Shown here: positions 1 through 560 of the stretch, piece by piece
Numbering within the stretch: position 1 is the first letter of the stretch
How the letters are laid out: each line of letters starts with the position of its first letter
From: Escherichia coli
Lineage (GTDB): Bacteria > Pseudomonadota > Gammaproteobacteria > Enterobacterales > Enterobacteriaceae
Assembly: GCF_003334255.1 (NCBI RefSeq)
Contig: NZ_QOWU01000218.1
Direction: 5' to 3' (one strand)
Length of the DNA: 593 nucleotides
Translations under genes and position numbers: made by a program
The notes under the pieces: generated by a model
Seen by the model: the letters and a program-made list of their open reading frames with translations, nothing else
Databases searched by the model: none
Told to the model about the DNA's origin: nothing

Positions 1-4
1 GCAT
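1..4 (-). CDS. Rz1: Start of embedded Rz1-type outer-membrane lipoprotein spanin (o-spanin); only the ATG at 4..2 and one further base are inside the window
   Basis: ATG at 4..2 on the minus strand is in the +1 frame of Rz, 220 nt downstream of the Rz ATG and inside the Rz codons for ELADA. This is the same offset and motif at which lambda Rz1 initiates. A GAGGG ribosome-binding site lies 9 nt upstream (18..14), and the +1 frame has a TAG stop at 10..8 immediately before it. The lipoprotein signal and lipobox cannot be seen because they lie beyond the window. Confidence 0.5.
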
Positions 5-224
5 CGGCTAATTCCCTCGAGTATTTTGCATCGAGCGCAGCAACATCGCGCTGGCGCACCTGCATATCAGTAATGGTGGCGTTTGCCAGCTCCAGCTCTC
101 TGGCTTTTTTATCGCGCTGCGCTTTGTAGGTGATGGCGTTATCGCGGTAATGGTCTGTTGCCAGCCACAGCGCACCACAGCCACCCGCCAGGACAATAAT
201 CACCACACACAGAACACGGCTCAT
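1..224 (-). CDS. Rz: Rz-type inner-membrane spanin (i-spanin), N-terminal 74 codons; partial, the 3' end of the gene runs past position 1
   Basis: Reverse-complement translation from ATG at 224..222 gives [74 protein letters not shown] with no stop to the window edge. It has an N-terminal hydrophobic signal-anchor segment followed by a charged segment that matches, from memory, the phage lambda Rz N-terminal region ([51 protein letters not shown]) nearly residue for residue. Not in the supplied ORF track because it is open-ended. Confidence 0.9.
14..18 (-). promoter_or_regulatory. Shine-Dalgarno ribosome-binding site (GAGGG) for the embedded Rz1 start
   Basis: Plus-strand ccctc at 14..18 is GAGGG on the minus strand, 9 nt upstream of ATG 4..2. 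From memory, lambda has AAGGAG at the equivalent position upstream of Rz1. Confidence 0.4.
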
Positions 225-231
225 CTCTCTT

Positions 232-363
232 TCACCCCACCAGTCCCGATAACGTCAGGACTCGCCAGGCGGTGGAAAAGAAAATGGCAACCAGCATTAG
301 TGAAAATGAAATGCCGACAATTACACAGAGGATCTTCGCCAGCGTTATGAGTTTGTCTGACAT
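232..363 (-). CDS. Hypothetical 43-aa small membrane protein (one predicted transmembrane helix), translationally coupled to Rz
   Basis: ATG at 363..361 is preceded by AAGGGAGG (378..371) with a 7-nt spacer. Translation is [43 protein letters not shown], then TGA at 234..232, which is 7 nt before the Rz ATG. A hydrophobic stretch of about 22 residues ([24 protein letters not shown]) fits a single membrane helix. The track's longer version (start 453) begins with GTG directly after a stop, has a Gly/Cys-rich N-terminus and lacks a ribosome-binding site. Confidence 0.5.
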
Positions 364-370
364 GCTTAAT

Positions 371-378
371 CCTCCCTT
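371..378 (-). promoter_or_regulatory. Shine-Dalgarno ribosome-binding site (AAGGGAGG) for the 43-aa ORF; overlaps the TGA stop of the upstream ORF
   Basis: Plus-strand cctccctt at 371..378 is AAGGGAGG on the minus strand, a near-perfect complement to the 16S rRNA 3' end, 7 nt upstream of ATG 363..361. Confidence 0.6.
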
Positions 379-560
379 CACGATTTCAACGCAATGACCA
401 GTTTTGCCAGCCCATACAGCATCGGGGACACAGCAACACCGACCGCCACCCACTTAATGGCAAAAGCCAGTGCTCTGCTGATGTCATCAGTTACAGGCGC
501 TTTCAGTTCAAGGCCATTTTTCATAGTCAACCTCAACAGAATTCGTTTATACTTTTCCAT
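378..560 (-). CDS. Hypothetical small tail-anchored membrane protein (60 aa if ATG 560; 48 aa if ATG 524); 5' end unresolved because the frame is open to the window end at 593
   Basis: Frame translates MEKYKRILLRLTMKNGLELKAPVTDDISRALAFAIKWVAVGVAVSPMLYGLAKLVIALKS, then TGA at 380..378. ATG at 560..558 is preceded by AGGGAG (569..564, short 3-nt spacer); the alternative ATG at 524..522 is preceded by GAGG (534..531, 6-nt spacer). The N-terminal part is charged (K/R/E/D) and the C-terminal 25-30 residues are hydrophobic. The stop abuts the ribosome-binding site of the next ORF. Confidence 0.45.
   Translation of the reverse strand: MEKYKRILLRLTMKNGLELKAPVTDDISRALAFAIKWVAVGVAVSPMLYGLAKLVIALKS

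Follow-up and report, generated by a model that had tools for sequence, protein, structure and literature searches.

An embedded Rz1 o-spanin gene very probably starts at the edge of a 593-nt window of Escherichia coli DNA

The ATG at positions 4..2 on the minus strand of the DNA analysed here (the window, a stretch of 593 nt) is very probably the start codon of Rz1, the gene for the o-spanin, or outer-membrane subunit, of a lambda-type two-component spanin, which lies inside the gene for its partner, the inner-membrane i-spanin Rz. Rz1 at the window edge is an ordinary feature that falls within the embedded spanin family of lambda Rz/Rz1. In effect, it is a known feature in a textbook arrangement, and its protein is already present in public databases. 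The features of the window on which the argument draws are the following.

1..4, minus strand: first 4 nt (ATG C) of the Rz1 o-spanin gene, with the start codon at 4..2
8..10, minus strand: +1-frame TAG, two codons before the Rz1 ATG, which closes the upstream +1-frame ORF
14..18, minus strand: GAGGG, a Shine-Dalgarno-like (SD) element, with a spacer of 9 nt to the Rz1 ATG
1..224, minus strand: 5′ part of the Rz i-spanin gene (74 codons + 2 nt), with the ATG at 224..222
232..363, minus strand: 43-aa ORF directly upstream of Rz (phrog_4906)
378..560, minus strand: 60-aa ORF between the endolysin gene and the 43-aa ORF (phrog_1115)

Since the window contains just 4 nt of Rz1, the remainder of the gene was read from identical or related records and not from the window's own molecule. 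Coordinates beyond the window are those of Escherichia phage PhiR12_3 (locus L001), in which window position p corresponds to 4594-p and the remaining 182 nt of Rz1 occupy 4594..4775.

An earlier note on this DNA had placed an ATG at 4..2, in the +1 frame and 220 nt 3′ of the Rz start, and these coordinates were confirmed by script. The codon lies, as had also been claimed, within the codons GAA TTA GCC GAT GC, which encode E-L-A-D-A in Rz. The GAGGG described 9 nt before it is found at 18..14, and the TAG reported at 10..8 is indeed in the +1 frame, where it is made by Rz codons 71-73 (GAA TTA GCC). The minus strand of the window thus ends ...AAATACTCGAGGGAATTAGCCGATGC-3′, and the translated +1 frame near this end reads ...NTRGN*PM. 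A search of Rfam at E ≤ 1 gave no match anywhere in the window and, consequently, there is no RNA element competing for positions 1..20.

Taken alone, the window's own features of Rz1 do not exceed what chance could produce. The anti-SD duplex at the Rz1 site has a free energy of -6.4 kcal/mol and ranks 28 of 468 positions across Rz. An ATG-initiated ORF of at least 61 aa is observed in the +1 frame of 12,024 of 20,000 synonymous-codon shuffles of Rz; as 60% of the shuffles are equally open, the openness of this frame was dropped as evidence for Rz1. A lipobox-type ORF is found in just 299 of the 20,000 shuffles, which themselves retain much of the real sequence. An open frame with a ribosome-binding site is, therefore, merely a lead, and the proof must lie outside the window, in its extension, in homology and in conservation.

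With regard to extension, Escherichia phages PhiR12_3 and PhiR12_4 match the window at 100% identity across its 593 nt, and so do prophages of E. coli G1/2, G6/7 and G8. Of 5,426 complete E. coli genomes, 1,822 contain a match to the window, with a median of 2 places per genome, and most of these places are on chromosomes. A literature search on PhiR12 returned unrelated matches only, and no paper on these phages was found. The exact 593-nt window is present in three fetched loci (L001, L002 and L006), and one downstream sequence is common to all of them. The relevant genes in PhiR12_3 are listed below.

L001 3124..3877: class II holin (71 aa) and lysozyme (177 aa)
L001 4370..4837: full Rz gene, 155 codons
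L001 4590..4775: Rz1 ORF, in the +1 frame inside Rz, 61 aa

The earlier note had predicted an o-spanin lipoprotein gene continuing past position 1, and an ORF of 61 aa, MRELKMKLCVLMLLLVVSACGSTPPAPVPCVKPPAPPAWIMQPAPDWQTPLNGIISPSESG, is found there in L001, L002 and L006. It ends inside Rz, also as anticipated, with its stop 62 nt ahead of the Rz stop. In none of these three loci does the +1 frame reach an early stop, and in none does the product lack a lipobox.

The predicted protein has the organization of a lipoprotein precursor that had been foreseen. A PS51257-like match, ending at Cys20, marks a signal peptide with a lipobox cysteine. Its n-region is basic (R2, K5 and K7); after it come a hydrophobic core free of D, E, R and K and then VSA and the cysteine. 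This lipobox, V-S-A-C20, satisfies both the PS51257-type pattern and the lipobox consensus [LVI][ASTVI][GAS]C given in PMC6139136. The mature part, for which a proline-rich stretch of about 40 residues had been expected, comprises 42 residues, 12 of which are Pro (29%), and carries a PPAPP motif and a periplasmic cysteine, C30. Its N-terminus is C-G-S, so that the +2 residue is Gly and not Asp. By the Lol-avoidance rule, lipoproteins with no Asp at +2 after the lipidated Cys are sorted to the outer membrane, a destination that Gly at this position of Rz1 would suit.

Homology places this protein firmly in its family. Rz1 matches Pfam PF06085, 'Lipoprotein Rz1 precursor', at 3.7e-21 and over model positions 1-40 of 41, and phrog_3198, 'Rz-like spanin', at 1.7e-31, with the profile aligned from residue 1. 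Compared with lambda Rz1, 43 of its 61 residues are identical (70%), and there is a weak similarity to Pfam LysC (E = 0.16). No model of NCBIfam matches Rz1, Rz or the two small ORFs, which is a gap in that library and no argument against membership of Rz1 in the family; PADLOC likewise gave no match for Rz1 or for either small ORF. NCBI already lists the exact 61-aa protein, with no difference along its whole length, under the name 'Rz1 family lipoprotein' from Escherichia coli (for instance, EED0594897.1 and EEQ7190119.1), and its cluster at 90% identity has 852 members. In PV340552.1 and NZ_CP060083.1, both of which were fetched and contain the window, Rz1 is unannotated. It is known that embedded o-spanins are under-annotated by gene callers (PMC6139136).

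The host gene gives a concordant picture. Rz matches Pfam PF03245 at 8.5e-50 and phrog_13 at 1.5e-75 and is 70% identical to lambda Rz; a search of PDB sequences with Rz gave no solved relative. Its N-terminal transmembrane segment is at about residues 4-20, where hydropathy has its maximum (2.57, residues 4-20), and the part of Rz in the window spans this segment and the first helical periplasmic region. Judging from these similarities, the gene around Rz1 is a genuine Rz. Its label in the phage record is 'endopeptidase Rz', a legacy name that is ill-suited to an i-spanin.

Rz1 (4590..4775) lies wholly within Rz (4370..4837) in the +1 frame, which is the embedded architecture, and covers Rz from 0.47 (start) to 0.87 (end) of its length. 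In about 70% of embedded spanins, the start lies at 0.4-0.5 L and the end at 0.9-1.0 L (PMC6139136), and the placement of Rz1 is thus within or close to the modal range. Other spanin architectures are represented by LysB/LysC of P2 (overlapped), PseT.3/PseT.2 of T4 (separated) and gp11 of T1 (unimolecular). Because the o-spanin gene is entirely inside the i-spanin gene, the pair described here is of the embedded class, which sets it apart from the P2, T4 and T1 types. All of these architectures disrupt the outer membrane through a lipoprotein and an inner-membrane anchor (PMC6139136).

The prototype of the embedded two-component spanin is lambda Rz1 (YP_001551744.1) in Rz (NP_040646.1), and in lambda both proteins are required for disruption of the outer membrane, where the lipidated Rz1 is located (PMC5295617, PMC6139136). 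The claim that the window follows the lambda register holds: RefSeq places lambda Rz at 45966 and Rz1 at 46186, which is also an offset of 220 nt, and in a pairwise DNA alignment both ATGs share one column, base for base there. The two systems also have in common the +1 frame, the position of the ATG in the E-L-A-D-A codons, the TAG two codons before it, the lipobox Cys at residue 20 and the end of Rz1 inside Rz. The C-terminal half of lambda Rz1 is nearly identical to that of the present protein (AWIMQP.PDWQTPLNGIISPSE). Moreover, the cysteines of lambda that form intermolecular disulfides, namely Rz C99, Rz C152 and Rz1 C29 (PMC5295617), are all conserved, as Rz C99 and C153, which align with lambda Rz C99 and C152, and as Rz1 C30, the equivalent of lambda C29.

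There are also differences from lambda. Rz1 has 61 aa here and 60 in lambda, and the extra residue is in the linker, which reads GSTPPAPVP here and TSKQSVSQ in lambda. The lipobox is VSAC instead of VVGC. The proline stretch is PPAPP, whereas in lambda it is PPPPP; the lambda penta-proline is essential although one position tolerates alanine (PMC5295617), and this is where the Ala sits in the present protein. As regards the surroundings, two small ORFs separate the endolysin gene from Rz here, while in lambda the R and Rz genes share 4 nt. In the signal peptide of Rz1, at L001 4626..4634 and so outside the window, LLL replaces the LPL of lambda and most relatives. This is because of a GCC-to-GCT change that keeps Ala in Rz and turns Pro into Leu in Rz1, a substitution that is silent in one frame yet not in the other.

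Conservation was assessed in 83 loci, made up of 80 IMG/VR loci with relatives of Rz (86-100% identity), L001, L002 and lambda, from which the Rz regions were taken by blastn-anchored extraction. An intact Rz1-like lipobox ORF is present in 83 of the 83, in 22 distinct protein versions. The loci were reduced to 46 distinct Rz-region DNA sequences, which were used for diversity, and the Rz1 ATG at 4..2 is kept in all 46. At the place of the GAGGG, lambda has AAGGAG, and the relatives have GAGGG or AAGGG.

These data bear on the choice of the start codon. It is unlikely, although the best-surviving of the alternatives, that Rz1 is real but starts at the ATG of codon 6 (L001 4605..4607, outside the window), with the ATG at 4..2 unused or of minor use; the window would then contain just leader sequence of Rz1, and the mature lipoprotein would be unchanged. 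The codon-6 ATG is found in every Rz1 variant listed, including lambda, and a start there would leave a 15-residue signal peptide, MKLCVLMLLLVVSA before the Cys, that still has a basic residue, a hydrophobic core and the lipobox. The mature protein cannot tell one start from the other, because the signal peptide is cleaved off, and no direct mapping of the Rz1 start site was found in PMC5295617 or PMC6139136. Nevertheless, SD pairing is stronger at the first ATG (-6.4 kcal/mol) than at that of codon 6 (-3.0), and in all relatives the first ATG is invariant and at canonical spacing from GAGGG, AAGGG or AAGGAG. In addition, the first ATG is the one used by the RefSeq annotation of lambda and by the residue numbering of the literature (C20, C29 and P32-36; PMC5295617), and it is from residue 1 of the protein started there that the phrog_3198 profile aligns. 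These points favour the ATG at 4..2 as the start, with a small chance that the codon-6 ATG serves in its place or alongside it.

A second alternative concerns the source molecule, in which the spanin pair could be broken past the edge of the window; a prophage remnant in decay might still have 5′ ends that look intact. The window does end 4 nt into Rz1, its matches in complete genomes are, as described above, mostly chromosomal, and some such prophages are degraded; for instance, a neighbouring gene is frameshifted in L002. Against this, what follows the exact window is intact and the same in all three loci that contain it, none of the 83 loci showed a disrupted copy, and one of the identical records is a complete phage genome with a named host. 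A broken pair is, thus, very improbable, and an intact Rz1 past the edge is the preferred reading.

The effect of dual coding in the overlap is visible in the third codon positions of Rz, which are summarized below for the 46 distinct sequences.

Rz nt 73-219, before the overlap: 61% of third positions variable, mean diversity 0.163
Rz nt 220-405, inside the overlap: 32% of third positions variable, mean diversity 0.033
Rz nt 406-465, after the overlap: 70% of third positions variable, mean diversity 0.230

In the overlap, 20 of 62 third positions are variable, whereas the flanks have 44 variable ones out of 69 (Fisher p = 4e-4), and diversity at third positions is about five-fold lower within the overlap. 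Fewer variable third positions are to be expected in this region because the third position of Rz is the second position of Rz1. Purifying selection acts on both frames, that of Rz and that of Rz1. In the stretch of the overlap that encodes the Rz1 signal peptide, it is the third positions of Rz that vary most, while in that encoding Rz1 residues 32-61 the wobble positions of Rz1 vary at 12 of 31 sites and those of Rz at 5 of 31 (p = 0.086). As this is only a trend, a switch of codon phase within the overlap is not claimed. In lambda, genetic analysis has shown that sensitive domains of one frame overlie silent domains of the other (PMC5295617), and both the drop in third-position variation and the phase trend fit those genetics of Rz and Rz1.

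The least tenable alternative, in which the +1-frame ORF is a non-coding by-product of the amino-acid composition of Rz, can appeal to the frequent openness of this frame in shuffles, to another +1-frame ORF of 62 aa further upstream in Rz and to an SD that is merely in the top 6% of Rz sites, but it has next to no probability. Homology and the pattern across codon positions in effect refute it, through the Pfam Rz1 match at 3.7e-21, the 70% identity to the experimentally characterised lambda Rz1 and the suppression of Rz third-position variation in the overlap (p = 4e-4), to which the rarity of lipobox-type ORFs in shuffles and the intact ORF in every one of the 83 loci are added.

A further trait of the region is the stop that precedes the Rz1 ATG. 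Codon 72 of Rz (window 8..13, minus strand) is the sole TTA among the 15 Leu codons of the gene, and the +1-frame TAG is invariant in the 46 distinct sequences, including lambda, while codons 71 and 73 vary synonymously. Perhaps this TAG at 10..8 is under selection, either as a 'guard' stop or as the keeper of an A/T-rich, unstructured spacer between the SD and the ATG, but this is a speculative reading that we hold to be improbable. If the guard stop were real, it would end upstream +1 translation, and no N-terminal extension would bury the signal peptide of Rz1.

The neighbourhood of Rz is that of a lysis cassette. The class II holin and the lysozyme are encoded 0.5-1.2 kb upstream of Rz on the same strand. 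Near the N-terminus of the lysozyme (residues ~5-27) there is an Ala/Gly-rich segment of weak hydrophobicity, and the 71-aa holin and 177-aa lysozyme of L001 may resemble the pinholin and SAR-endolysin pair of phage 21. Of the two small ORFs, that of 43 aa encodes a single segment of strong hydrophobicity and is preceded by the best SD of the window (-11.3 kcal/mol); given its place in a lysis cassette, it might conceivably act in lysis timing or in exclusion. The 60-aa ORF has a C-terminal hydrophobic segment and alternative starts at 593 (GTG) and 524 (ATG), and GenBank and RefSeq differ on its start (48 aa vs 60 aa). Its exact sequence occurs on 987 contigs, where it is named only 'hypothetical protein', and one member of its 90%-identity cluster is called 'Transmembrane protein'. 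At the junction of endolysin and Rz (L001 3877..4370 and its equivalents in L004-L083), the gap ranges from 302 to ~1000 nt among relatives, and the presence of either of the two ORFs, of 60 aa and 43 aa, does not depend on that of the other. This junction is a variable slot and looks like a hotspot of small accessory genes. ORFs on the plus strand of the window (for instance, 150..350) have nothing to support them and were taken as antisense artefacts of the lysis genes.

The steps by which Rz and Rz1 may act can be proposed by analogy with lambda, from which they are all taken (PMC5295617, PMC6139136). Late transcription of the holin, endolysin and Rz cassette would produce one mRNA carrying two separate initiation sites for ribosomes, the ATG of Rz and the internal one of Rz1. 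Rz would be anchored in the inner membrane. The Rz1 precursor would be exported, lipid-modified at Cys20, cut by signal peptidase II and sorted to the outer membrane, and its 42-residue proline-rich part may then bind to the C-terminal coiled-coil region of Rz, so that the two proteins would meet at their C-terminal regions and form a complex across the periplasm. Once the endolysin had removed the peptidoglycan, the spanin complex would fuse the inner and outer membranes in the last step of lysis.

The significance of these observations is slight and lies mainly in the quality of annotation, as they add another o-spanin that had been missed, inside an Rz gene that still carries the obsolete 'endopeptidase' label. 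They also show that, even without tools, the start of an embedded gene can be placed correctly from the register alone, and the set of aligned sequences provides a clean illustration of dual-coding constraint.
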